From Eledone cirrhosa (lineage: Eukaryota): a stretch of 64,000 nucleotides of DNA. The stretch's first letter is position 1. Each line of letters opens with the position of its first letter. The DNA lies in contig OZ024743.1 in NCBI GenBank assembly GCA_964016885.1, forward strand, positions 372,682,001 through 372,746,000, written 5' to 3'. Both the position numbers and the translations under genes were made by a program. Under the pieces are notes generated by a model. That model ran no database searches, was not told the origin of the DNA, and saw nothing but the letters and a program-made list of their open reading frames with translations. Positions 941-64,000 of this stretch are shown here, piece after piece.

Positions 941-1456
941 TATCTTCAAACTGATTTTGAATCAGATACTTTCACCAATGACATCACACCAATTATATTA
1001 GCCGGTCACATCGATAACTATGAAATTATTAAAATGTTGCTTGACCGTGGTTACAGAATTCCAAGACCTCATGATCTCACTTGTCATTGTGATGACTGTC
1101 TCAAAGGAAGTACAGATGATGTGTTAGGCCATTCACGAGCCAGAATCAATGCATATCGGGCACTAGCAAGTCCTTCACTTATTGCTTTATCAAGTAAAGA
1201 TCCCATTCTTACAGCTTTCGAGTTGAGCTGGGAACTTCGGAACCTCAGTGAACTTGAGAATGAATTTAAAACTGAATATCAAGAACTGGGCAAAATCTGT
1301 CAGCAGTTTTCTGTTGATCTGCTCGATGAAATCCGTGGATCAAAAGAACTTGAAATTATTCTAAATCATGATTCACGATCCCCAGATGATGATCAATCTA
1401 AAGAAAACAAGAAATTAAATCGACTGAAACTTGCCATAAAATACAAACAGAAGAGG
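941..1456 (+). CDS. TRPC: TRPC-family channel, exon w1 (last ankyrin repeat, zinc-binding TRP_2 region, helical linker); gene begins upstream of the window
   Basis: Acceptor ttctag|TAT, donor AGG|gtaagg. Translates [100 protein letters not shown], a characteristic TRPC sequence. Confidence 0.95.
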
Positions 1457-4873: not shown

Positions 4874-5108
4874 TTTGTTTCTCATCCAAATTGTCAACAG
4901 TTACTAGCATCGAAATGGTACGAAGGATTAGGCAACTTCCGACGAAAGCCTGCCATTAAACAACTCACAATTGCCTTATCAGTCTGTTTCCTCTTCCCAG
5001 TACTTAGTGTAATCTATATGGTTGCTCCTCATAGTAAATTTGGTAAACTCTGCCGGAAACCTTTTATTAAATTTTTACTTCATGCCTCATCTTATATAAG
5101 TTTCTTAG
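4874..5108 (+). CDS. TRPC: TRPC exon w2 (pre-S1 elbow and start of S1)
   Basis: tttcag|TTT ... TTAG|gtaagt. Translates FVSHPNCQQLLASKWYEGLGNFRRK..KPFIKFLLHASSYISFL. Phase 0 to 1. Not in the ORF track. Confidence 0.95.
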
Positions 5109-6711: not shown

Positions 6712-6846
6712 GTCTCCTCATCATGGTTTCTCAAAGAATAGAGAATCCATTATTTTTCCTGTTTCCATTTCAAGAAACAAAAAAGAAAGAGTTGAGAGGA
6801 AAACCTGCCACTATAGTAGAAATGATGATTCTATCCTATGTTGTTG
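6712..6846 (+). CDS. TRPC: TRPC exon w3 (S1 end to S2 start)
   Basis: ttttag|GT ... GTTG|gtaaat. Translates (G)LLIMVSQRIENPLFFLFPFQETKKKELRGKPATIVEMMILSYVV. Phase 1 to 1, in frame with neighbours. Confidence 0.9.
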
Positions 6847-7042: not shown

Positions 7043-7307
7043 TATTTATGTTAATTATGATTATGGTTGGTGATGTCAGAAAATAATCAAATGTTTTCAT
7101 CATAATTTGATCATCATCATCCTCATCATTATCATCATTAAGATCATCATCATCATCATTATCATCATCATCATCATCATTATTATTATCGTCGTTTTAA
7201 CATCCGCCTTCCTTGCTAGCAAGGGATGGATGGGTCTACATAGACCAAGTCAATACTCAAGAAAAGCTACTGACCTCCCAGACAGGCCAGAGATTGGCAT
7301 TTCACTT

Positions 7308-8107
7308 ATGCACAGTCTCTCATGCTACAGAGTTCACAGGAAAGATGCACAGTCTCTCATGCTACAGAGTTCACAGGAAAGATGCACAGTCTCTCATGCT
7401 ACAGAGTTCACAGGAAAGATGCATCAGTCTCTCATGCTACAGAGTTCACAGGAAAGATGCATCAGTCTCTCATGCTACAGAGTTCACAGGAAAGATGCAT
7501 CAGTCTCTCATGCTACAGAGTTCACAGGAAAGATGCATCAGTCTCTCATGCTACAGAGTTCACAGGAAAGATGCATCAGTCTCTCATGCTACAGAGTTCA
7601 CAGGAAAGATGCACAGTCTCTCATGCTACAGAGTTCACAGGAAAGATGCATCAGTCTCTCATGCTACAGAGTTCACAGGAAAGATGCATCAGTCTCTCAT
7701 GCTACAGAGTTCACAGGAAAGATGCATCAGTCTCTCATGCTACAGAGTTCACAGGAAAGATGCATCAGTCTCTCATGCTACAGAGTTCACAGGAAAGATG
7801 CATCAGTCTCTCATGCTACAGAGTTCACAGGAAAGATGCATCAGTCTCTCATGCTACAGAGTTCACAGGAAAGATGCATCAGTCTCTCATGCTACAGAGT
7901 TCACAGGAAAGATGCATCAGTCTCTCATGCTACAGAGTTCACAGGAAAGATGCATCAGTCTCTCATGCTACAGAGTTCACAGGAAAGATGCATCAGGCTC
8001 TCATGCTACAGAGTTCACAGGAAAGATGCATCAGTCTCTCATGCTACAGAGTTCACAGGAAAGATGCACAGTCTCTCATGCTACAGAGTTCACAGGAAAG
8101 ATGCATC
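7308..8107. repeat. 38-bp minisatellite, ~21 copies
   Basis: Unit atgcatcagtctctcatgctacagagttcacaggaaag with 37-bp variants. Explains the three overlapping repetitive ORFs. Confidence 0.97.
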
Positions 8108-8737
8108 AAGTGCGTCAACCCTTGTTTTGTAAGCTTTCTACAGCCAGATACCCTTCCTATCACCAATCACTTTACAGCATATACCAAGTGCATTTATTGT
8201 GTAGATCACCAACATCACCAACGCTAGGGAAGCCATCATGTTCTTTATATGACTGAAGGGTCCTCCTGATCCTTTGTTTGGCAAGCTTTCTACAACTGGA
8301 TGCTTTCCTATCACTAACCACTTTACAGAGTGTACTGGGTGTATTTACTGTGTAAATCCCAAACATTAATTACTTTGTGGATTGGCACCGGACAAATATT
8401 TAGCAGTATTTGTTTCTGGTTAAAAGTCTAGCAAAGTCAACTTTATCATTCATCCTTCTAAAGTTAATAAACTAACGTACCAGTAAAGTACTGGGGTTGA
8501 TATAATCGACTTTCCCCTTTCCACACAATTGCTGGCTTTGTGCCTAAATTAGAAATCATCATCAGTGACATCACCATCATCATCACCATCATAATCATCA
8601 GCAACATCATCATCATCATCATCAGCAACGTCACCATCATCATCATCAGTGACATCACCATCATCACCATCAGCGACATCACCATCATCATCATCATTAT
8701 TGTTGTTGTTGTTATATTTATTATTTCCTACTTTCAG

Positions 8738-8877
8738 GTTTAATATGGTCTGAGATAAAACAAATATGGATGCAGGGAGCCCTAGAGTACATCCATGATA
8801 TGTGGAACATATTGGATTTTGTCACCAATTCCCTCTACATGGCCACATTTACACTACGTCTTCTGGCTTTCATTGAA
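8738..8877 (+). CDS. TRPC: TRPC exon w4 (S2-S3)
   Basis: tttcag|GT ... GAA|gtaaat. Translates (G)LIWSEIKQIWMQGALEYIHDMWNILDFVTNSLYMATFTLRLLAFIE. Phase 1 to 0. Confidence 0.95.
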
Positions 8878-11804: not shown

Positions 11805-12154
11805 GTATATAATGAAAGAGCTGCACATAACCCATATGCTTTTGAAGAACGCAAACATTGGGATGCTTATGATCCAAACCTTATTGCCGAAGCTTTGTTT
11901 GCTGGTGCTAATATCTTCAGCTCCTTGAAGTTAATTTATATTTTCACGATAAATCCCCACCTGGGACCACTACAGATCTCCTTGGGGCGTATGGTTGCAG
12001 ATATTGTCAAATTTATATCAGTATATTTCCTCGTACTCTTCTCCTTTGCCTGTGGCTTGAACCATCTTTACTGGTACTACGCTGCACTCCGCGCAGAAGA
12101 ATGTGAAGCAGGAATTACACATTCATGTGATATCAAATACAGAAGTTTTGCAAA
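11805..12154 (+). CDS. TRPC: TRPC exon w5 (S4, S4-S5 linker, S5, extracellular Cys pair)
   Basis: ttacag|GTA ... GCAAA|gtaagt. Translates [86 protein letters not shown]......SC..YRSFA. Ends in phase 2. Confidence 0.95.
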
Positions 12155-17057: not shown

Positions 17058-20000
17058 TGCTTTCTTTATTAACCACAAGGTTTGACATAAATTATAACAT
17101 TAAGGACAGCACAGAAAGGTACATGATGGTACAAATGGGCATTTCTGTATGCAAAAAAAAACAAAATTATATATATATAAAAAACAAAAACAAACGATGT
17201 AGCAAAAAATGAAACAAGGAAAAAATCCCCAATAAGGGGGAGACTTCTAAGGATCACTTGAGAAGAAAACCCACAAAAAGCCACAGTCACCCTAACTGCT
17301 AGGACAAAGGCCCTCTTCCAGTTTTCCTCCTACGATACTACAGGCATATACTCAGAGCAGGCCCATTCACACAGGCCATCTTGCCTCACCCACCTTTCAA
17401 CAAACTGGCTGGAAGACAGCACTTCCCTCTCCCCCATGATTTTCCTTTTCAGGTGAAACCTGAAAAAGGTAATGAGCGTGTCACTGAAGAGGAAAGTGCC
17501 CATCTTCAACCCTTTCAGATGCGTCCACCATACAACCTCTTTTACCATGGCCACTAGGCAGATAAAAACTGCGTGCCATCTTGGTTAAAGGAGGGCAACA
17601 AGGCAATCTTCACGATGGACTCAGCTGATAGCCGTATCTGTCCTACACGCGACAGTAGATGTTCAATATAACCCCACAGCAATGTCGGCAATGTGTCAGC
17701 AATGCTCGGACACTGGACGAGTGCATGCAGGATGGTTTCATCACCCTGCACGCATCTTGGACAGGCCCGGCTGACGGCCTGTAGAGTTTATCCTGAACTG
17801 GCAAAGCTCCCTGGTAGCTCTGCCAGACCAGAGATCTCTGGAAGTTGTCCATGGGCCCTGGCCCAAAAGTTCTCCCAAAGAGATTGGGCTAGTTGATTTT
17901 CGTCGATGCCCAGAGTCTCCTCAAGGATGTCGTTTCTCTTTCTCTCCACTAACCCTCTATAGAATGCCAAGGTGGAGTTTCCAGCGATCGCATTGCCTGA
18001 TTGGTCGAGAGCTGTGAGCGCCTGAAGACATTCCAATCTCCAAACGCTCCCTCTCAGTCTTCGTTTGATCAAGGACTGCAGCTCCGTGAAGGAGACGAGC
18101 TGAAGAAATGTGCATCTAGCAAACAACGACCACACCTGTTCACCGTCAAGGAAGAGGTGGAGATGCCATAGCCTGAGAGTATGTCTGCACATCATCAGCC
18201 ACGACATGCCCTAGCCCTCCATGTAGTGGGTGTTGACAGCAGATGGACCACCTGACTATTGGAGTGCATCCCTACCACAAAAAGCGGAATAGCAAATGCT
18301 CCAGCACAGTCAGGCAAGGCTTAGGACAAGGCATGATGGTCAGGCAGTAGTAGATGACAGATGCAAGGTACGCATTCGCCACCTCCGCTCGACCTTTCAG
18401 GGATAGCTTCCTCTCAGCCCATCTGGGTGAGAGAGGCCACCCTGTTCGTCACCTCGTCCCAGTTTTTGTTCATCTGGAGGTCCGGATAGACCAGACTCCT
18501 AGCAATTTAATCGGTCCGTCCCTCTAGTGCTTGACATTGAATGGCATAACCTGCCTCTCCAGATGCCGAGCCGCAGACCCATCGACTTTTCCTAGTTAAT
18601 CATTGCTCCTGTCACCGCCTTGTATTCTCTTAGTGTAGTGCTGATATGTTTGGCACTCAACACCACTACAGTGACATTGTCGGCATATGCTGACACAGTT
18701 CTCCCACAGCCCAGTTCGCGCAGGATGCCCCTCAACATCTCCAGTTTGTGTAGTAATGGCTCGAGAGTCAATACCTACAACAGGGACGATAGGGACATCC
18801 TTGGCGGACCAAGTGCAAGATGTTGAACGGTTCCGAAAGGTGACCATTCACTCTCACCACAGAGCAGATATCACTGTGCATGGCAGCAAACCAACCTCTG
18901 AAGAGGGGCATAAATCTAGATATGATCTGGATGACCTGATGCAGTTTGTCCATGTCCACATTGGCACATTTGGGAAATCCAGTTAAAAACGTCTGAGCAA
19001 GGTTATGAGGCGTTTACACCCTCCTCCCATATCCGCTAATCCCACACAGTCCTAGCGTGCATCTAAGATCCCATTCCAGTCGCCCACTAACACTAAAGAG
19101 TGGGACATTCCAAGAAAGGTCTCCAGTCGCCGGAAGAAGTCAGGCTGTCGTGCCCCTGTCGGGGCATAGCTGACCACTAGCCTCAAAGCTTGCCCTTGTT
19201 CACTGGTCACGTCCAGCACCACCAACTTACCTTCTGGATCCAAGAAGATGGCCTGTATCTCGAGATCCAGGCTTCTCCAGAACAACACAGCCACTCCTCC
19301 CCTAGATCCGGGACGGCTTGGAGATGTGTTGTGTACACCTCGTAACTGCCGAAAATGGGTGTGCGAATGCCCGTGCATCAGAGATTCTGGTCTCGCTGAT
19401 GGCCACCACATCTATGTTTAGCGACCTGAGATCGTTGAGCAGGTGACCCTGCTTCCAAGATGACCCCAGGCCACATGCATTTATACTGCCTATTCTGAGA
19501 GAAGGCATGTTGGCCAAGATAGGAGGGAAAGAAGTGAGAGGCGAAAAGTAAAAAACTTTACCTTTGGCTTTTTTTTAGGAAGGGAGTGGGTGATGCATCC
19601 CTCCGACCAGTGGTGGATTTCTCCATGAGAATGTGAGAATATATTCTTTTCGAGAGGGTCCCTTGATAGTCTCCAATTGCCGCAGGGAACTTTTTCTTTA
19701 ATGTTGTGTAATTCTTTTGAGAGATTTCAATTATTTTTCTGTGTGTAGGAGGTGCAATTTTGGTGGTTTGTATGTAATTTGTTTCTGTGATGTTGGTGTG
19801 GTGTTGAATGTAATTTAAAAGCTTTGTTGTCTGTGTCTATAGCTGTGTATTGTGTCTGCTTTTGGGATGTTGGTGCTTTCTGTGTTTACTGTGGTGTTGC
19901 TGGAGGTGACGATGAGGTAGATGATAATGATGGCGGTGATGATGGTGATGGTGTAGGTGGTTGTGGGGGAGGGGCTGTTGATGGTGATGGTGGTGGGGTC

Positions 20001-23981: not shown

Positions 23982-24199
23982 GATACCCCAAGTACTTCAA
24001 TAATTCAAAAGACTAAATATATTGTTAAGTCTAAGTAGATTAAAATCTATATCTAAAAATGTTATGATCTGTACTGAACAAGAGCCATGATCTGAACTCA
24101 AGTTTTACTGAATTCATTCCAAGAAAATCATACCTATATCTTTGTTGTATATTTATGTTTGTTGTACAATTACTATTGTCTGTTTCCTTTATTTTCCAG

Positions 24200-24395
24200 T
24201 CTTTTTGAGATCTTGCAGAGTTTATATTGGGCAATTTATGGCCTTGTTGATCTAGAACACGCTCATTTGGATGAACCACACAAACTGACAGAACTGATAG
24301 GCAAATTGATGTTTGGCAGTTACAGTATGATAGCCATTATTATTCTGCTTAACTTACTTATCGCTATGATGAGCAATTCCTACCAACTCATCTAT
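24200..24395 (+). CDS. TRPC: TRPC pore exon w6A (pore helix, filter, S6); alternative copy 1
   Basis: ttccag|T ... TAT|gtaaga, 196 nt, phase 2 to 0. Translates LFEILQSLYWAIYGLVDLEHAHLDEPHKLTELIGKLMFGSYSMIAIIILLNLLIAMMSNSYQLIY. Confidence 0.93.
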
Positions 24396-25870
24396 GTAAG
24401 ACTCATTCCTTTGTATACAAAATTCTTTATTCATTATATTTTCATCAATATATATATATTCACCCTTGTAATTTTAATGAATTTTGTAATTCGTTTTTGT
24501 GTGTGAAATTTTTCAGAAAAGAAAATTATGACCTTCTATCTATAACTGTAATAGATTTAACAATTTCTTTTGAACAGGCAACAAGTATATTCTTTTCTCT
24601 TTCAGCATAGATAACTCGGAAAATAATACATGAAAAAATAATTCTCTAACAACCTGGACCTTCACAGCTTCATCCGTTCATCACTTCCAGAACATTCCAA
24701 AATACCGGTATTCGTTAAAAATAGTCGTTCATTTATCAAGGAATTTTAATCTTGTGTTGAATTTTTCTTTGTTAAAATTTTATACAGATTTTCAGACCTG
24801 ACCATTTGGCAAATTCCTCAATAATCTGCTTCTTCTTTACAAACTTCTGCACTATTTCTTAATTTTTTAAATCTTTTTTTGATTTTAAATATATTTAGAA
24901 TATAAAACTAGTTAGTTAGTTAATTAATCATAATTCTATGAAATAATAATATTTTAAATTTAAAAATGCTGAATAGAAAAAATTATATTTTCAAAAAAGG
25001 GTAGAAGAGAAATTAGTATTGTAGTTGAATTCTGGGAAACATATCTCTAATGAAACAAAAAAATAATATTCATTAAACGAAGAGAGAATGAAGGCTTCTG
25101 ATTCACACTTGATAAGAAGTCTGAATATTAATGTAGACAGATTAAATGACTATCACATATAATAGAACTACAATGATATGGGGTTGTTTTGAAAGAAACC
25201 ATGCTTATATATCATATATAACTATGTCACAGGTTTTCTAAAAATATAATATTGTACCAAATGGTACCCTGATGTCAGATGGTAAGAGCAATACTTGGGT
25301 GTACTAACTTAATTTTTTTTTTTTTTGTGTGGGAAGGAGGAGTTTTATTTTGTTTTGTCTTTGATGAGTGCCAGAGTTCTAGACAGGATGAACTGAGCAT
25401 AGGGGTTAGGGCAAAGCCTAGGGTAGGGATGAATACAGTATAGGTGATGAGAAGAGGAAAGACAAATGAATCAAGAATGCCTAGCAAGCTCCAAAGAGCA
25501 GTGGCCATTGTAGTAATGGTAGACTGTGTGTCTATATAAGTCACCGGCTGGAGAGTGTCTAACCAATTGCTTTAATTTCTTTAATTATACACTAACTGAT
25601 GATATTTCATTCTAAATGAAGATCATAAAGTAACCATATAATCTTTCCCAGAAAATAAAGAATATAATTATTTCTGGAAGTTTTCCCAAATATTCTATTA
25701 TATTACTTTGGGAAGCTGACTAAAAAATAATCGTATTTCTATTGACCAAAACATTTTTCAATTTTCAGACTACTAAGAGCAAATATTTAGAACAGACATC
25801 ACAGATATAAATCAGTTTCAATAATCTTAGAAATACTGAAGATTCCTGTAACTTTTTCTTTTCTTTCCAG

Positions 25871-26066
25871 TCTTTTTGAAATCTTGCAGAGTTTATATTG
25901 GGCTTTGTATGGCCTTATAGAACTGGACAACGCTCACTTGGACGAACCACACAAATTCACAGAGCTGGTTGGCAAACTGATGTTTGGAAGTTACAGTATG
26001 ATAGCAATCGTTGTGTTGCTCAATTTGCTCATTGCTATGATGTCACTATCATATCAAATGATATCT
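25871..26066 (+). CDS. TRPC: TRPC pore exon w6B; alternative copy 2
   Basis: ttccag|T ... TCT|gtaaga, 196 nt. Translates LFEILQSLYWALYGLIELDNAHLDEPHKFTELVGKLMFGSYSMIAIVVLLNLLIAMMSLSYQMIS. Confidence 0.92.
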
Positions 26067-26124
26067 GTAAGAAAGTCTTTTACTTTCTCCTTATTGATCA
26101 TGATTTATTCTGCTTCTTTTGCAG

Positions 26125-26320
26125 TCTTTTTGAGATATTGCAGAGCTTATATTGGGCAATTTATGGTCTTATTGATCTGGAAGATGCCCATCTGAAAGAA
26201 AATCACCATTTCACTGAGCTCATTGGGAAACTGATGTTTGGTAGTTACAGTTTGATAGCCATAATTGTACTTCTGAACATGCTAATCGCTATGATGAGCA
26301 ACTCATACCAAATTATATCT
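26125..26320 (+). CDS. TRPC: TRPC pore exon w6C; alternative copy 3
   Basis: ttgcag|T ... TCT|gtaagg, 196 nt. Translates LFEILQSLYWAIYGLIDLEDAHLKENHHFTELIGKLMFGSYSLIAIIVLLNMLIAMMSNSYQIIS. Confidence 0.93.
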
Positions 26321-29300
26321 GTAAGGAATACAATTTAAGTCTGCTCTACCTAAGTTACAGCCTACTGATATAAAGTTCTGGCAAGACGAATACAATCCAC
26401 ACTGTTCTATATAGTTTTTTCCTCATGGTACGCATATATAAACCATGTTCATTTCTATAGTTAGCTGCAATATAGAAACTGTATATTAACATTCATATAT
26501 TTGACAGTAGAAGATAGATATATGTTTCGAGCCATATGCAATCCTAGCTATTTAGTTATTGGGCCTTTAAAATAACAACCCGTGCTCTACTACAGAGTTA
26601 GTATACAATTGTTTTTGTTCAAGACACCTCCAGTATAGTTATTTATTTTCATCACTAAATATTTTTAGTCTCCTTTAACCTTTTCACAATAAACTTCTGC
26701 CCACACTTCAAAAAATATTTTTCTTTTACTTTAAAACTATTACAATTGGGAAATCTTAGAAATTAAGAATTTTATGCCTTAATTCTAAACAACAAAGTCT
26801 TAAATTTTTTCTTATTAATTTGTTAGTATTTCTGATAAAATTAAAAATATTGTTTTCTGGAGAATTTAAAAAAAAATACAGAAATTGAAAATCTAGGGAA
26901 TTAGAAATTTTTTTGTCTTCAAGAATTCTAAATAATGAAGTTTTTAAATTTTTTTATTAATTTGGAGACTTTAGAGATAATATTTTTGATGATTCTTTTC
27001 TTTCTTTTCACGGAGAAACTAATAGAATTCTTTTAAAGTAATTTTTCAAGCAATATGTGAACAATACATTTGTTTAAACTCTGCTTGTTTTTACCTGGGT
27101 TTGGAATTTTGGCATAAATGAATCCAAACAAATATTTTCAGCTGCATTAATTTCTTAATGTAAACCAGTCAACCATGAAATAGAAGTTAAACTTATCTTC
27201 AGTGAGGTAGGATATGTCAAATGGAATTATATACCAAGCCTTAACATTTGGTTCAATATTCATTTGTAGGTTTTAAAAGCTTGAGGGACATGTAACTGCA
27301 AAAATAGTTGGAGCACAACCCTCCCAGTGTTTTAGACAGCACCTTCCTTATCACACAAATGTTGTTTTTTTTTAACCCCAAATTAAACTCTACTCCCTTC
27401 ATCAACCATTTGCAAGCCCCTTTACTTATAAATGCATTGTCTATGGCATTATCCTACACATGTATTTCAAGGGACCTCAGATCCACAATTTCTTTTCTTA
27501 TAATTTATTCCTTTGTGAGTCTGGCAACACCCTGATTATATCGGCTGATTCATTATCTTAAATTAACTGATATTTCATTACAGTTTGTACTTTTTTGCTC
27601 AGCTTCTCAGAGAATCTTCAGAAGTTCTTGTACAACTCTACCATTTCATATGAAACATACCTTGAACGATTTCAGTTATCTTAAACTGGTTTGTTTGAAG
27701 TATCCACAATAAATTCTTTATCTGTAGAGCATAAATGTTGGTGTTGAATCACTTACCACTATTCCATGGGCAGTATAGTTAGAATCATATATCCTATATC
27801 AATGTTATCTGTTGAGAGAAATGTTCAAAATGCCAACCGATGAACTTTAATGTCAAAATACTTTGTATTAACATGAAACATCAGTTGATAACAAAGAATA
27901 TTCTGATTAGACTTTCAATGGAATGTCTGCATAAGATATCAGATATTGTTCTATCTGGGAAAGAAAAAGAAAATATGTGTCCTATTGTAGAAATCAGTTG
28001 TCTAAAATAGTTTTAATAAAAGACACAATCTACAATTTTCGAATAATTTTGAAAATAATCAAAGAAATAGAGAGATTGAGTAATAGAATTAATTTTCTTT
28101 ACTAAGCCTGTGTTTGGAGGATAACATAGCAAAGGTTCTTACATAAATTTATAATGAGAGGTTTTTAAATAAATATAAACACTTTAACCCTTTTTCACAG
28201 CCATATTTTTAACGAAAGACACTGCCTATGATTTTAAAATAATTTTTTTAATATTTAAGAAAATAAAGAGTTCTAATTAAAAAAAAAAAAATTATTCTTA
28301 CTATCAAGCTGGTGTTTGGAGCATAACTTAAGAAAAGTTCTTACATAGAGTTATGATGAAAGTTTTTAGATAAATATAAATGTTTGGTATCAAAAGGTTT
28401 AACTGTAGCTAGACTTTGTACAATAAAAGAAAGGTTCTTTTTAATAACAGTACATGAAAAGGACAATACTAGTGAGTGTGAAAAAGTTACAGCTCAAACC
28501 TATGTAGGTAGGTTTGGCTGGCCTCTTACAAAGTAATATTTCATAGATTTCTCAGATAATCCTATCATGAAAAGCAACTTGTGTTTTGCTCAGTCGAAGA
28601 ATCTAACACAGCCTTATGATGTAAATTTTTTCCAGTTTTTAAATAAGGCTATTGTTTAAAAAAGAAAAAAGTTACACTAGTCGTTTCATTGCCATATTTT
28701 AAATGAAATACTACACTGCATATGTATTTCTATTCATTTAAGAATAATTTGAAGGAGGTTTAATCAAATATGTAATGTTTTCATGATAAAGTTGGTATTT
28801 GGTGCATAACTTTACAAATTGTTCTGAAACAAGATCATCTCAGACAGTTGTAATTTGAATACAAACAGAGCTGACTAGGGTTAGGGTTAGGGCTAAGGAT
28901 AGAGTTACTATTAGGGTCATGGTGTCTCGAGTAGGACAGGTATGATGATAGGAAGGGGTTAATGAGGACATATGGAGATATAAGATATAACCTTTTTTCT
29001 TATTTTTAGTTTTTTTTTTGTTTTTAGAATAGGTGATTTTAATAATTTAATGTAATTTATCTTGTTTGAAAAGAGAGCAACTCCAATTAAATATGAAAAT
29101 AGTTTCAAAATTTTGGAAGTCTTTGTAAAATTTCTAGTTGATGTAAAACTTTTCACACTTTCCCAACCTTCTTCCTTATGTGTTTGCACTATCTGTGAGT
29201 CTGCCAGAGCTGTATAGAAGTAAGCTGTAAAAGTCGGTTTGTTGCAAATGCTTTCTTTTTTCATTCAGCTTTTGATTCTTTCTACATAATGCTATAACCC

Positions 29301-31910: not shown

Positions 31911-34900
31911 ATCATCATCATCATCATTTTACGTCCGCTTTTCCCTGCTTGCAAGGGTGGGACGGGTCTTATTCAGCACAGCATCTCTCCACTCGTCACG
32001 GTCCCTCGTCATCTCCACCGTGAGCTTCAATGATCTGAGGTCTGTTCTCACCACCTCCGCCCATGTTTTTCGTGGTCTACCTCTACTACGTCTTCCTTCA
32101 ACTGGCATTTCCTGGCACTTCTTCACCCATCGGTCATCCTCCATGCGCATCACATGTCCATACCACCTCAGTCTCCTCTCCCGTACACTACATTCTATCC
32201 CTCTCAGACACAGTTTCTCTCTCAACACATTTATGCTGGGTCGTTCACGCACATTTACACTGCACATCCAACGGAGCATGCTTGCCTCATTTCTCTCCAG
32301 CCGTCGCATATCTTCTGCGGTAGCTGCCCATGTCTCACTACCATGCAGCATCGCGCTCCTCACACAGGCATCATACAACCGGCCTTTCGTACGCAGGGAG
32401 AAACCCTTCTTCGTCAACAGAGGAAGCAGCTCCCTAAACTTCTTCCAACCCGTCCTTATTCTAGATACTATGGCCTCGGAACACCCTCCTCCCATGCTAA
32501 TCTGATCTCCTAGGTACCGGAAGCTATCCACCACTTCTATAGCGCCCTCTCGCATTTGAAAAATGTGTCTATCAGTGCGACTTCTACTGTCTAATTTCCC
32601 TGTACATCTACTGCATACATATTTCTCCCTACCTGTTAGTTTGCCTGCTATCCCGCTACATCTCTTGTGTACCCAGGACCTACATTGTGTGCATTTTATA
32701 GAATTTATGCCAGTTCCTTTTCTGCATATCGAACATGGCCATTTCCCTGACGGAATCAGGGTTTTGTCCTCTTTTCTACTCATCAACACTTTTGTCTTAG
32801 CTAGATTTACTCTCAGTCCTCTTGCTTCCAACTGCTGTTTCCATAGCCGGAATTTATTCTCTAGCTCCTCTACTGATTCTGCCATAAGAGCCAGATCGTC
32901 AGCATAGAGAAGTTCCCATGGACAGCCAGTCTTAAACTCCTCTGTTATGGCTTGGAGGACTATAATGAACAAGAGCGGGCTGAGGACCGAACCCTGATGT
33001 ACTCCTACTTGTATCTGGAATTCCTCACTAAACTCCATTCCTACCCTGACTTTACTGAGAGTACCTCTGTACAAAGTTTGCACTGTCCTTACAAGCCATT
33101 CCTCAACACCCAGCTTCCTTAGGGACCACCAGATGACAGATCGGGGTACCCTATCAAAGGCCTTCTCTAGGTCAACAAAGGCCAAGTATAGTGGCTTATT
33201 CTTCTCTAAGAACCTCTCTTGCATTTGTCTCACCAAGAAGAGGGCATCTGTTGTACTCTTCCCAGGCACAAAACCAAACTGCATCTCATCTAGTTTGACC
33301 CTTTCTCTAATTAGTTGTGCTAAAATCCTTTCTGCCACTTTCATAACCTGATCTATCAGTTTTATACCCCTATAATTGCTCCTCTCCAAAGCATCCCCTT
33401 TACCTTTGTAGCAATTTATGAGAATACTGCTGCACCAGTCTTTGGGTATGACACCACCATATATAGCCTGATTGATTATGCGTGCAACCAGTTTAGTGCC
33501 TACGTCCCCTGATGCCTTCAGCATCTCAGCAACTATTCCCGATGGTCCGGCCGCCTTACCATTTTTCATTTCCCTAATCGCCTCTTGGACCCTATATTCG
33601 TCAATCTCAATAGCTGGTCCCTCTGTCGGATCTACCAAGGGTAATTTCTCTCTCTCCCATTCGTTCTCCACATTCATCAGTCTCTCATAATGACATTTCC
33701 AGGCCTCCTTTTTCTGGTCATTCGTGACACTAAGTACACTGGCATCATCCCGGACACATTTATCACCAACAACATCCTGATTTGCATTGACACACTGCCT
33801 TGCAATGTGGAACACCGCACGCCTCTGATCTTCCCGTCGCAGAACATTGGCAAACCTCCTACTCTCTGCCTCCCTGCGTGCTAAGTACACCTGACGTCTA
33901 GCTTCTCTCTTAGTGGCTGTATATTCTTCCCTACTCCCACCCTTATTCCAAGCCTTCCATGCTAGTCTTTTGTCTCTAATAGCCTTATCTACACTGCTGT
34001 TCCACCACCAGGTCACTCTCTGTCTGGTTGGAGCTCTGCTCCAGCCACAGGTTTCATCAGTAGCCTTCAGCAAGTTGTCACGTAAGAACTTCCAGTTATT
34101 ATCTATGTCATACGTCTCTAAATCGTCTTCTTTTTCGTCATATACATCTTGAAGGGCTTTCCTAAATTTGAATTTTAGTGAAAGGTCTTTTAGCTTCCAG
34201 ACCTTTCTTCTCCACACCTTCCTATATGGCTCATTCCATTTCTTGCTTACTGAGATATCACTAACAACTAACCTATGCTGTGGGGTACATTCTTCCCCAG
34301 GGTATGCCTTGGTATTAGACACTATCTGCCTGTCCCGCTGCCTAACTAGCAGGAAGTCAATCTGGCTTATGTGCTCACCAGATTTGTAGGTTATTAGGTG
34401 ATTGGCAGGTTTCTGGAAGTTTGTGTTGCAAATAGTCAATGTACTTGCATCACAAAATTCAAGAAGTCTCACTCCTTCTTCATTTCTTGAACCATAACCA
34501 TGCCCACCATGTACCCCAGTGTAACCATCCTGGAGCTGTCCAACATGACCATTGAAGTCTCCTGCTAGCATAACGATGTCTCCGTCCTCTGTCATTGTGG
34601 TTGTTTGCAAAAGTTGCTCATAAAAGCAGTCTTTCTCATCTTTGCCTAGGCCTGCTTGGGGAGCATAGACCGAGATGATTGTCAGTAGTCTCCTACCTAC
34701 AACTAATCTAAGCTTAATTATTCGATTACTAACTCGAACTACCTCTATTGTCTTATTGATCCATTTCTCAGCCAGGAAAATGCCTACTCCCCCTAACCCA
34801 TCATCCTTACCTACCCAGAATAGCTTATAGCTAAGACGCTTGCCTACGACTAGTCTCGCAGAGGTACCTCACCATCTCACCTCTTGCACGCAGCACACAT

Positions 34901-48330: not shown

Positions 48331-48525
48331 AGCCAAGCTGATGAAGAATGGAAATTTGCTCGTTCCCGACTCTGGATAAGTTACTTTCTAGAAGGCGCAA
48401 CTGTTCCTCCACCTTTTAACATCTTTCCCAGTCCAAAGTCTTTTACAAATGTTGTTGCATCCATCAAAAATCTACTCCTGGCTCACACAGCAGAACAGAA
48501 GACAGCCAAATGGAAGAATGTTCGG
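48331..48525 (+). CDS. TRPC: TRPC exon w7 (TRP box and proline-rich TRP box 2)
   Basis: atttag|AGC ... CGG|gtaagt. Translates [38 protein letters not shown]..; EWKFAR is the TRPC signature. Phase 0 to 0. Confidence 0.96.
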
Positions 48526-49916: not shown

Positions 49917-49958
49917 TCCACTGTCACAAACATTAACAAGAGAGAAATTCGTTACCAG
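49917..49958 (+). CDS. TRPC: TRPC micro-exon w8 (42 nt, start of rib helix / CIRB-like region)
   Basis: Long pyrimidine tract, cttcag|TCC ... CAG|gtaaaa. Translates STVTNINKREIRYQ, which joins VVIRKLISRY to recreate the TRPC YQ-x-V-x-R-x-L-x-x-RY motif. Confidence 0.85.
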
Positions 49959-51453: not shown

Positions 51454-51732
51454 GTGGTTATTCGTAAGTTAATTAGTCGTTACATCATGAATAAACAACG
51501 ACCACAGAAGGATGAGATTGTCTCTCAGGATGACGTTAACGAACTTAAACAAGATATCTCAACATTCCGTTTTGAACTGATGCAAGTGTTGAACACTAAC
51601 GGCTTTGAAACCCCTGTTATACATCAAGCGAAAACCTCGAGTAAGAAAGACAGAATGTGGAAGAACCTTTCAGTGGCAACTGATACTAATCCAGAACAAC
51701 TTTTGGAAGAAGCTGGTTTGGTTGACGACTAG
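51454..51732 (+). CDS. TRPC: TRPC terminal coding exon w9 (rib helix and C-terminal coiled coil)
   Basis: gtacag|GTG. Translates VVIRKLISRYIMNKQR..VSQDDVNELKQDISTFRFELMQVL..AGLVDD*; ELKQDIS.FRFE is the TRPC coiled-coil motif. Confidence 0.9.
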   Translation: MVIRKLISRYIMNKQRPQKDEIVSQDDVNELKQDISTFRFELMQVLNTNGFETPVIHQAKTSSKKDRMWKNLSVATDTNPEQLLEEAGLVDD

Positions 51733-59270: not shown

Positions 59271-60685
59271 TTATATATATATATATATATGTATGCATGT
59301 ATGTATGTATGTATGTATGTATCCCAGTACAACCTGTCCCATGGTCGGGTCGTTGGCGACTAAACTGGCAACCCCACCAAGGTTTCTTGGTGAGGAGGGT
59401 GACTTTGGACATCCTGCAGGACTAAAAACAAAACCTGTCAAAGGGCAAAGGAGCTCTTAAGAGTCAATGGCCATCCAAAATCACTGGGAGAGATGACCCC
59501 TTAGCCTTTGTCAAGGCAGAATTCTAGGAGAAGGAAAACTCTGATATAACACCTGCAACCCTGATGGTATCCAATGATGTTGACTTGTTCTTCTTTTTGG
59601 TAAATATCATCTTGGTTAAGAGAGTGGGACTGGCTTTGTGCAGTGCCTTTGCTCACTATAAAAGCTTCACGGCACAGACATTTCTTTATATCTGGAGATC
59701 TCTCTGCACTTGTCCTCACATGGTACCATGGACCCAGCACTATGTGTCGATAATTGTCACAAGTGTAGTGTTTGTACCAGAGATTTCAAGTCGCTGGCTG
59801 GACTAAAAAGTCACACTCGTTCAGCGCATCGGTAGGGGTTCTCCTACATGGATATAAAGTAGTGGCCATACTCGAAAACGAGTTGGCAGCCACCATGTAT
59901 GTATATAAAGACATGAAGTACAGATGTAAAGTATCATAACAAGTGTTTTTCAATTGGCAGTTATTAGTGTTAAATAACATAAATAATGTAGTTATATTTA
60001 TAATTAATTAATGTTAATATAATTGTTTTATTAACAGTCAAATATTCAATAATATAGTAGTTATATTTAAAATTAATTAGTCAAGGATACAGTTGTTATA
60101 TTTACAGCCAAATATCATTGATAATACAGTTATATATTGTTTGTAGTTTTTTAGCAGAAATTTTGGTTTGATGTATGTTGGATGTGTGATTAGTGTGAGG
60201 TTGATGTGATCAACATTAGGGGTGCAATTTCTCCAATGCATCAGTATCGAATGAATAAACTAATAAGGAAACAAAACTGCTATTACATATTTATTTGTTA
60301 CTATGGAATACAACGAATCCATGTGACGAACAATAAAGTATTTTGGAGGGCTGTAAATATATTTGGTATAGAGAAATTTATCAGTAAGATATGTTGTATA
60401 AAGTTTTTAGGGAAAGATTAAATACATGACTGTAGAGAGGTGAAGAAATTAGGGAAGATTACCTCAGTGTAGTGTCACACATGTTATTAGTGACCATCTA
60501 AAATGGCTGCTCTGCTATCACAGTCATGATCTGTCGTCAGTAATGATAATAATAAAAATTGTGTACAGTTCTCAGGTGCACTACAATTCATCAAAGGTGC
60601 ATGTATAGTACATAGAATAATGTACAAATGTCAGGAAAGTGAACAGTGTACGAGTCATTATATATACAAGAAAGATAAGAGCCAA

Positions 60686-63600
60686 GATGTTATATTTACA
60701 GTGAACAATATAGGTATTATGTTTACAGTAGACAATATAGTTATTATGTTTACAGTGAACAATATAGATGTTATGTTTACAGTGAACAATATAGGTATTA
60801 TGTTTACAGTGAACAATATAGATGTTATGTTTACAATGAACAATATAGGTATTATGTTTACAGTAAACAATATAGTTATTATGTTTACAGTGAACAATAT
60901 AGATGTTATGTTTACAGTGAACAATATAGGTATTATGTTTACAGTGAACAATATAGATGTTATATTTACAGTGAACAATATAGTTATGTTTACAGTAAAC
61001 AATATAGATGTTATGTTTACAATGAACAATATAGGTATTATGTTTACAGTAAACAATATAGTTATTATGTTTACAGTGAACAATATAGATGTTATGTTTA
61101 CAGTGAACAATATAGTTATTATGTTTACAGTGAACAATATAGTTATGTTTACAGTGAACAATATAGATGTTATGTTTACAGTAAACAATATATATGTTAT
61201 GTTTACAGTGAACAATATAGATGTTATGTTTACAGTAAACAATATATATGTTATGTTTACAGTGAACAATATAGGTATTATGTTTACAGTGAACAATATA
61301 GATGTTATGTTTACAGTAAACAATATATATGTTATGTTTACAGTGAACAATATAGGTGTTATGTTTACAGTGAACAATATAGTTATTATGTTTACAGTGA
61401 ACAATATAGATGTTATGTTTACAGTGAACAATATATATGTTATGTTTACAGTGAACAATATAGTTATTATGTTTACAGTGAACAATATAGATGTTATGTT
61501 TACAGTAAACAATATAGGTATTATGTTTACAGTGAACAATATAGATGTTATGTTTACAGTGAACAATATAGGTATTATGTTTACAGTGAACAATATATAT
61601 GTTATGTTTACAGTGAACAATATAGATGTTATATTTACAGTGAACAATATAGGTATTATGTTTACAGTGAACAATATAGTTATGTTTACAGTGAACAATA
61701 TAGATGTTATGTTTACAGTAAACAATATATATGTTATGTTTACAGTGTACAATATAGATGTTATGTTTACAGTAAACAATATAGATGTTATGTTTACAGT
61801 AAACAATATAGATGTTATGTTTACAGTAAACAATATAGATGTTATGTTTACAGTAAACAATATAGATGTTATGTTTACAGTAAACAATATAGGTATTATG
61901 TTTACAGTAAACAATATAGATGTTATGTTTACAGTAAACAATATAGGTATTATGTTTACAGTAAACAATATAGATGTTATGTTTACAGTAAACAATATAG
62001 ATGTTATGTTTACAGTAAACAATATAGATGTTATGTTTACAGTGAACAATATAGATGTTATATTTACAGTAAACAATATAGTTATGTTTACAGTAAACAA
62101 TATAGATGTTATGTTTACAGTAAACAATATAGATGTTATGTTTACAATGAACAATATAGATGTTATGTTTACAGTGAACAATATAGATGTTATGTTTACA
62201 GTAAACAATATAGATGTTATGTTTACAGTAAACAATATAGGTATTATGTTTACAGTAAACAATATAGATGTTATGTTTACAGTAAACAATATAGGTATTA
62301 TGTTTACAGTAAACAATATAGATGTTATGTTTACAGTAAACAATATAGATGTTATGTTTACAGTAAACAATATAGATGTTATGTTTACAGTAAACAATAT
62401 AGATGTTATGTTTACAATGAACAATATAGATGTTATGTTTACAGTGAACAATATAGATGTTATGTTTACAGTAAACAATATAGATGTTATGTTTACAGTA
62501 AACAATATAGGTATTATGTTTACAGTAAACAATATAGATGTTATGTTTACAGTAAACAATATAGGTATTATGTTTACAGTAAACAATATAGATGTTATGT
62601 TTACAGTAAACAATATAGATGTTATGTTTACAGTAAACAATATAGATGTTATGTTTACAGTAAACAATATAGATGTTATGTTTACAGTAAACAATATAGA
62701 TGTTATGTTTACAGTAAACAATATAGATGTTATGTTTACAATGAACAATATAGATGTTATGTTTACAGTGAACAATATAGATGTTATGTTTACAGTAAAC
62801 AATATAGATGTTATGTTTACAGTAAACAATATAGGTATTATGTTTACAGTAAACAATATAGATGTTATGTTTACAGTGAACAATATAGATGTTATGTTTA
62901 CAGTAAACAATATAGATGTTATGTTTACAGTAAACAATATAGATGTTATGTTTACAGTAAACAATATAGATGTTATGTTTACAGTGAACAATATATATGT
63001 TATATTTACAGTAAACAATATAGATGTTATATTTACAGTGAACAATATAGATGTTATGTTGACAGTAAACAATATATATGTTATGTTTACAGTGAACAAT
63101 ATAGATGTTATATTTACAGTAAACAATATAGATGTTATATTTACAGTAAACAATATAGTTGTTATGTTTGCAGTTAAATAATATAGTTGTTATATTTACA
63201 GTTAACAATATAGATGTTATGTTTACAATGAACAATATAGATGTTATGTTTACAGTGAACAATATAGATGTTATATTTACAGTAAACAATATAGATGTTA
63301 TGTTTACAGTGAACAATATAGATGTTATGTTTACAGTAAACAATATAGATGTTAAGTTTACTGTAAACAATATAGATGTTATGTTTACAGTGAACAATAT
63401 AGATGTTATATTTACAGTAAACAATATAGATGTTATGTTTACAGTAAACAATATATATGTTATGTTTACAGTGAACAATATAGATGTTATATTTACAGTA
63501 AACAATATAGATGTTATGTTTACAGTAAATAATATATATGTTATGTTTACAGTGAATAATATAGATGTTATGTTTACAGTGAACAATATAGATGTTATGT

Positions 63601-64000
63601 TTACAGTGAACAATATAGTTATATTTACAGTAAACAATATAGATGTTATATTTACAGTAAACAATATAGATGTTATATTTACAGTAAACAATATAGATGT
63701 TATGTTTACAGTAAACAATATATATGTTATATTTACAGTGAACAATATAGATGTTATATTAACAGTAAACAATATATATGTTATGTTTACAGTAAACAAT
63801 ATAGATGTTATATTTACAGTGAACAATATAGATGTTATATTTACAATAAACAATATATATGTTATATTTACAGTGAACAATATATATGTTATATTTACAG
63901 TGAACAATATATATGTTATATTTACAGTAAACAATATAGATGTTATGTTTACAGTAAACAATATAGATGTTATATTTACAGTGAACAATATATATGTTAT
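60686..64000. repeat. 27-bp minisatellite/satellite, >120 copies, runs off the window end
   Basis: Unit gatgttatgtttacagtaaacaatata with variants (gtga, ggtatt, 24-bp deletion). Confidence 0.98.

Follow-up and report, generated by a model that had tools for sequence, protein, structure and literature searches.

A TRPC channel gene in the 64,000-nt stretch of DNA analysed here (the window) carries three alternative copies of one pore exon, A, B and C, and the last two are separated by an intron of only 58 nt. We consider it likely, with a probability of about 0.7, that the joining of B to C is sterically blocked, as judged from the geometry and size of this intron. The 58-nt intron would be too short for the B donor and the C acceptor to be used together, U1 at the B donor and U2 at the C branch site presumably being unable to co-assemble. 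Any one pre-mRNA would then use either the B donor, joined to an exon 22 kb off, or the C acceptor, joined from an exon 14 kb off, and a frameshift stop would lead to the removal of any message still bearing two pore exons. The product would be three channels differing only in pore helix, filter and S6. Mutual exclusion of A, B and C is supported by single-pore proteins and by single-exon joints in relatives. A first-pass annotation of this DNA had proposed that B and C cannot be spliced together and that the short intron sterically enforces their exclusion. The exclusivity and the sub-ordinary size of the intron are supported; the steric cause is one that we infer, and "enforcement" is too strong a word because the frame rule already excludes all exon pairs.

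The O. sinensis protein P0007, in which Pfam lists ankyrin repeats together with TRP_2 and Ion_trans domains, aligns along the window by tblastn with its parts in the right order, the first exon there being 97% identical. Judged by sequence, the gene is the counterpart (orthologue) of squid TRP (TRP-gamma/TRPC4-5-like), and PLC-coupled cation conduction is a predicted property of this class of channels. Among the relatives of the gene is the Loligo forbesii trp-like protein O46129, whose pore does not differ from that of O. sinensis exon A. We take the gene to encode the photoreceptor channel, squid TRP having presumably come from photoreceptor membranes, and we assume that it carries the cephalopod light response. 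The best other genomic match to exon C in a genome-wide search reaches at most 52% identity. The first coding exon lies ~1-1.3 kb upstream of the window start, and the features within the window are the following.

941..1456, + strand: N-terminal TRPC coding exon (tblastn with P0007, 97%)
4874..5108, + strand: constitutive TRPC exon (tblastn with P0007)
6712..6846, + strand: constitutive TRPC exon (tblastn with P0007)
8738..8877, + strand: constitutive TRPC exon (tblastn with P0007)
11805..12154, + strand: exon preceding the pore cluster, phase 2 at its end (tblastn with P0007; its end precedes A and C in contigs)
24200..24395, + strand: pore/S6 exon A, 196 nt, matching the form in Loligo and O. 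sinensis isoform X1 at 98% identity
24396..25870, + strand: A-B intron, 1475 nt, of ordinary size
25871..26066, + strand: pore/S6 exon B, 196 nt, intact here
26067..26124, + strand: B-C intron, 58 nt, GT-AG, with candidate branch adenosines at 26097 (position 31) and 26103 (position 37)
26125..26320, + strand: pore/S6 exon C, 196 nt
48331..48525, + strand: exon following the cluster, with the TRP box, phase 0, 22,010 nt beyond C (tblastn with P0007; its start trails A, B and C in contigs)
49917..49958, + strand: 42-nt coding exon (tblastn with P0007)
51454..51732, + strand: final coding exon, containing the stop (tblastn with P0007)

The nine other introns within the window measure 3417, 1603, 1891, 2927, 12045, 1475, 22010, 1391 and 1495 nt. 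The difference originally noticed, 58 nt as opposed to 1.4-22 kb, is therefore borne out by measurement (58 versus 1391-22010 nt). The 22-kb intron contains a 979-codon ORF with endonuclease and reverse-transcriptase motifs (31932-34868, - strand), and broken coding fragments are present in the 12-kb intron (17550-19570, - strand); we take both to be LINE-like. Tandem repeat arrays at 60679-64000 and 7201-8253 give rise to long spurious ORFs.

Exons A, B and C are equal in length and phase and are 76-80% identical to each other in pairwise DNA comparisons; no fourth copy was found in the 64-kb window. Each encodes 65 residues, which match Pfam Ion_trans (PF00520) and align without gaps to residues 564-627 of TRPC4 and 568-631 of TRPC5, corresponding to the pore helix, filter and S6. 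The switch exchanges pore helix, filter and S6 gate as a whole, and there are signs of its repeated evolution in other protostomes. At position 17, aligned with N580 of TRPC4 and N584 of TRPC5, B has Glu whereas the other two exons have Asp; we take this position to be the site of D621 in Drosophila TRP. D621 is reported to set calcium permeation (PMC4164786), and divalent permeation in TRPCs is governed by acidic residues near the filter (PMC7116371). At position 59, beside the S6 gate, Leu in B replaces a conserved Asn that is present in A and C, and the outer-pore charges vary between the three exons. The A, B and C channels are predicted to differ functionally. Separately, position 26 of exon C (window 26200-26202) is Asn here but Pro in the covering contigs of related organisms and in the O. 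sinensis, O. bimaculoides and O. vulgaris proteins, a difference of two adjacent bases.

The B-C intron starts with GTAAGA and ends with TTTTGCAG. Its adenosines are at positions 3, 4, 6, 7, 8, 16, 27, 31, 34, 37, 41 and 57. The candidate branch adenosines that had been placed about 31-37 nt from the donor are indeed those at positions 31 and 37, which lie 27 and 21 nt from the 3' end of the intron, and the AG-free zone ahead of the C acceptor is 47 nt long. The adenosine farthest from the B donor, apart from that of the acceptor AG itself, is at position 41. Given these positions, the predicted branch point would be at most 41 nt from the donor, compared with a steric donor-to-branch limit of ~50 nt proposed for mammals (PMC5740500, PMC7969005).

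The limit below which an intron is no longer spliceable differs by species, since introns of Drosophila are most often 58 nt long. The comparison with the species' own introns that the first-pass annotation had suggested was made on 71 myosin introns of this genome, mapped with an O. bimaculoides protein; 27 further myosin gaps, in which a missed exon is likely, were dropped from the count. In this one gene family the shortest introns are 89, 90, 93, 100 and 110 nt, and 0 of 71 are shorter than 89 nt. A published fit places the short-intron peak at 105 nt in O. bimaculoides, 89 nt in human and 59 nt in Drosophila, the O. bimaculoides fit being based on 234,484 introns with a short component of 2.3% (PMC6157073). 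Approximately 0.24% of the fitted O. bimaculoides mass falls at 0-58 nt, a value extrapolated from the curve and not counted. Together, the 71 introns of one gene family and the fit from another species support the view that the 58-nt intron is below ordinary octopus intron size. The octopus looks vertebrate-like in this respect, with the B-C intron under its range. The cluster thus offers a natural test of minimal cephalopod intron size with an internal control, 1475 nt between A and B versus 58 nt between B and C.

Transcripts were represented by the contigs of four runs (X1, X2, X3 and X13) among 16 listed runs (13 guessed as RNA; three related organisms). The B-C spacer is 58 nt long in runs X2 and X3 and 60 nt long in run X1, and it is likewise present in the read-through ORF P0006. 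Because it is found in the contigs of two other organisms and in P0006, it is not a product of chance or an assembly artefact. Three further runs contain 0.96-0.99 of the words of 24190-26330. Relative to organism B, the intron has two differences listed, at most three, per 58 nt, whereas exons A and B each have seven synonymous codon changes per ~40 synonymous sites among the differences listed; on the listed differences the intron is less changed than exon synonymous sites (binomial p 0.001-0.02). Both intron changes in organism B flank position 37 and spare its adenosine, and we presume that they bring the site closer to the branch consensus. Organism A has two extra nt downstream of position 37, hence its 60-nt spacer. 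In squid-like read-through ORFs the spacer is 62 nt long, with the last seven codons' worth of sequence unchanged; across cephalopods, the spacer between the duplicated pore exons is 58-62 nt. This conservation does not prove selection on length, because splice signals occupy much of the 58 nt.

Each of the 11 full-length cephalopod proteins examined has a single pore segment. The O. sinensis isoforms X1, X2 and X3 contain A, C and B, respectively, the B isoform being the RefSeq prediction XP_036364091 (TRP-gamma-like X3), and the O. bimaculoides isoforms X1 and X2 contain A and C. A search for near-length proteins with exon B returned six matches, none of the B type. In the contigs, loose ends matched to flanking exons were taken as splice joints; such contig sets drop rare forms, and their coverage of B is thin. 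Joints of A to both the upstream and the downstream exon are present in runs X1 and X3, and the equivalent two joints of C in runs X3 and X13. The joint of B to the downstream exon, which bypasses the C acceptor, occurs in run X3 only, at a depth of ~6, and the upstream-to-B joint is absent from the four contig sets and found only in the RefSeq model isoform X3. The B-C joint (26066>26125), which the first-pass annotation had proposed to count, appears in 0 of the 4 contig sets, at low depth on B and with decay active. Its absence is weak evidence, because B is rare and contigs lose rare forms, and it is not specific to steric blocking, because a message with B and C would be degraded anyway. 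In each of the three runs with coverage of B, the 58-nt intron is left unspliced. Runs X1 and X2 contain long unspliced contigs extending from the end of A through C (window 24366-26449), which suggests that the introns of the cluster are removed slowly or retained. A contrast between A-high and C-high runs was also seen and is only a lead.

A length of 196 nt equals 3n+1. In the window model, A, B or C alone gives the full frame, and each of the combinations AB, AC, BC and ABC meets a stop three codons into the second exon (residue 526 of the model), 427-623 nt upstream of the last joint. Skipping all pore exons gives a stop 191 nt ahead of the last joint, and retention of the 58-nt intron also gives an early stop. 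Given the 3n+1 length and the early stop, decay likely backs every exon pair. It could accordingly be argued that B joins C at a low rate, that nonsense-mediated decay (NMD) destroys the product, and that the short intron is a leftover of tandem duplication. Every double inclusion is indeed out of frame, and 377 of 629 human clusters are of the frame/decay type (PMC5740500). Furthermore, the spacer has stayed short even in relatives with a broken B, and so its shortness need not be selected for exclusion. However, 58 nt is far under the sampled intron sizes, and a joint of A to a pore exon survives in one run while a B-C joint survives in none. The weight of the latter comparison is small: in run X13, the end of A is followed by nine letters common to the starts of A, B and C, in a contig of depth 2.5. 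This contig may represent a joint of A with B, with C or with A itself, and would weakly fit leakage across the long intron. Moreover, decay is compatible with steric blocking and almost surely acts as its backstop. We therefore regard decay with an incidental short intron as unlikely. Steric blocking, the reading that we prefer, is likely redundant with decay and adds efficiency for the B-C pair alone.

The state of exon B bears on another explanation, namely that B is a weak or dying exon, seldom included, whose exclusion from C needs no mechanism. In organism A (run X1), a 1-nt deletion at window 25896 shifts the frame of B, which is likely a pseudo-exon there. B is also degenerate in the squid-like ORFs P0003, P0289, P0290 and P0009, its donor apparently lost in the first three. 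Neither of the two named O. bimaculoides isoforms contains B, which also has the unusual Leu in S6 and, as mentioned, shows no upstream joint in any of the four runs. On the other hand, B is intact both here and in O. sinensis, with 62 of 65 residues identical and 7 synonymous versus 3 replacement codons among the differences listed, and by this comparison of sequences it is under purifying selection here. Its donor is used in run X3, and RefSeq includes the B isoform. A dying B thus seems quite improbable as the reason for exclusion, and steric blocking remains our preferred reading.

As the first-pass annotation had anticipated, the choice between A and B/C calls for a different mechanism. 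Because the A-B intron is of normal size, this choice likely depends on splicing regulation together with the reading frame and NMD; the low-depth contig of run X13 is the one instance of A joined to a pore-exon start. All donors of the cluster are of the GTAAG type and all acceptors are YAG. Incompatibility of U2 and U12 sites was considered and rejected, all cluster donors being U2-type. Competing RNA pairings (docker/selector, cf. Dscam) or regulatory proteins might also pick the exon, the length of the intron then being incidental. Some intron islands are conserved in relatives, and 4 of 102 segment pairs scored z < -3.3, including the pre-B region paired with the 58-nt intron. However, these duplexes are long, interrupted and AU/GU-rich and were scored against 40 shuffles only, and organisms A and B have several changes in the partner region ahead of exon B. 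Among the 102 segment pairs no selector common to all three exons was found on either side, nor does any strong inverted repeat connect exons A, B and C. We consider it highly improbable that pairing or regulatory proteins account for the exclusion of C by B in place of steric blocking.

Duplicated pore exons occur in other animals as well. Judging from protein ORFs, four mussel-like records (P0016, P0292-P0294) have two pore exons with 24 nt between them; the distance is 30 nt in a bivalve-type ORF with a damaged second copy (P0010) and 35 nt in the arthropod-type P0004/P0291. The second mussel-like copy is read off-frame, with a TGA apparently called as Trp. P0001, P0002 and P0005 (Mytilus coruscus, Owenia and Toxocara), which are gene models and not cDNAs, have two pore segments per chain, probably an annotation error caused by tandem exons, and Lineus isoforms include two pore variants. 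Of 80 metagenome loci, 52 have one pore exon (many on short contigs) and 28 have two. The latter (L047, L050-L087) belong to TRPC genes that are less closely related; their tandem pore exons have diverged strongly and have introns of ~265-540 nt, and thus a pore exon can be duplicated without any tiny intron. Among the 80 loci there was no orthologue from a cephalopod or bivalve that had a short spacer. A look for a 40-nt case among acetylcholine-receptor genes, limited to five stretches chosen from 74 matches, turned up no duplicated exon. Elsewhere, ~20 tandem matches to Cys-loop receptors in long single frames were seen at G000:C11:23618645-23924408, presumably a cephalopod cluster of the chemotactile-receptor-like kind.

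A tree of the pore exons (65 columns, arbitrary root) was built after three rows had been left out: the long copy 1 of Toxocara, exon A of O. sinensis, which does not differ from Loligo, and copy 1 of P0016. In this tree, a single branch (79/89, not starred) separates the nine cephalopod rows from the rest, the two arthropod copies come together (100/98), and the Owenia and Lineus copies pair by species. The grouping of Mytilus copies 1 and 2 is neither supported nor rejected (p-AU 0.07). The union of octopus B and the second copy of Mytilus in one clade, a group named after the first tree, was rejected (p-AU 0.008). With its root arbitrary and gene conversion possible, the tree leans towards repeated independent duplication of the pore exon. 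A wider proposal is tentative, and we would put it at somewhat below even odds: cephalopods, bivalves, arthropods and further protostomes may each have duplicated the pore exon on their own, several of these lineages would have converged on a sub-minimal spacer of 24-62 nt as a lock, and one gene may switch pore modules of different calcium permeability by tissue, with A in the eye and C elsewhere.

The mechanism proposed here is already known, from 57 of 629 human clusters and 5 of 29 in C. elegans, and the octopus intron is a new case of it. A literature search, largely outside subscription papers, returned no account of TRPC pore-exon switching or of the 58-nt intron, and the accessible part of a paper on O. 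vulgaris nociceptors contains no description of the pore cluster or the intron. RefSeq already has the isoforms, and no comment on mechanism was seen there. The squid TRP O46129 is the same gene and carries exon A, and the O. sinensis isoforms X1-X3 are database predictions.

The first-pass annotation had likened the intron to that between exons 2 and 3 of alpha-tropomyosin, where we take the donor-to-branch distance to be under ~50 nt, as is predicted for the B-C intron. This analogy is sound for the donor-branch geometry, which is also shared by exons 4a/4b of OGDH, with a donor-to-branch distance of 25-41 nt (PMC7969005) against at most 41 nt here. However, in OGDH and alpha-tropomyosin the intron is longer and the mapped branch point is far from the acceptor, whereas in the octopus the whole intron is short and the candidates are 21-27 nt from the acceptor. 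A wholly short intron is closer to C. elegans egl-15 and let-2. In egl-15 5B/5A (14 nt) and let-2 9/10 (30 nt), and also in bet-2, gly-5 and gly-6, the intervening introns are too short (PMC4165533). Like B and C, these clusters consist of homologous tandem exons; their intervening intron is under the species minimum, as that of B and C probably is, and its excision was never seen in C. elegans (PMC4165533). The five C. elegans clusters have 3n exons, with size as the sole lock, whereas the octopus exons are 3n+1 and decay would form a second lock; in addition, the size threshold is octopus-specific, and a third exon, A, is outside the lock. Finally, in Lymnaea and other invertebrates, NALCN has mutually exclusive selectivity-filter exons 15a/15b (PMC3557258). 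There, as in octopus TRPC, the pore of the channel is exchanged by means of a duplicated, mutually exclusive exon, and molluscs are among the animals concerned. NALCN belongs to a different channel family and exchanges lysine and glutamate, whereas the exchange in octopus TRPC is milder, affecting Asp/Glu at the filter exit and the outer-pore charges.
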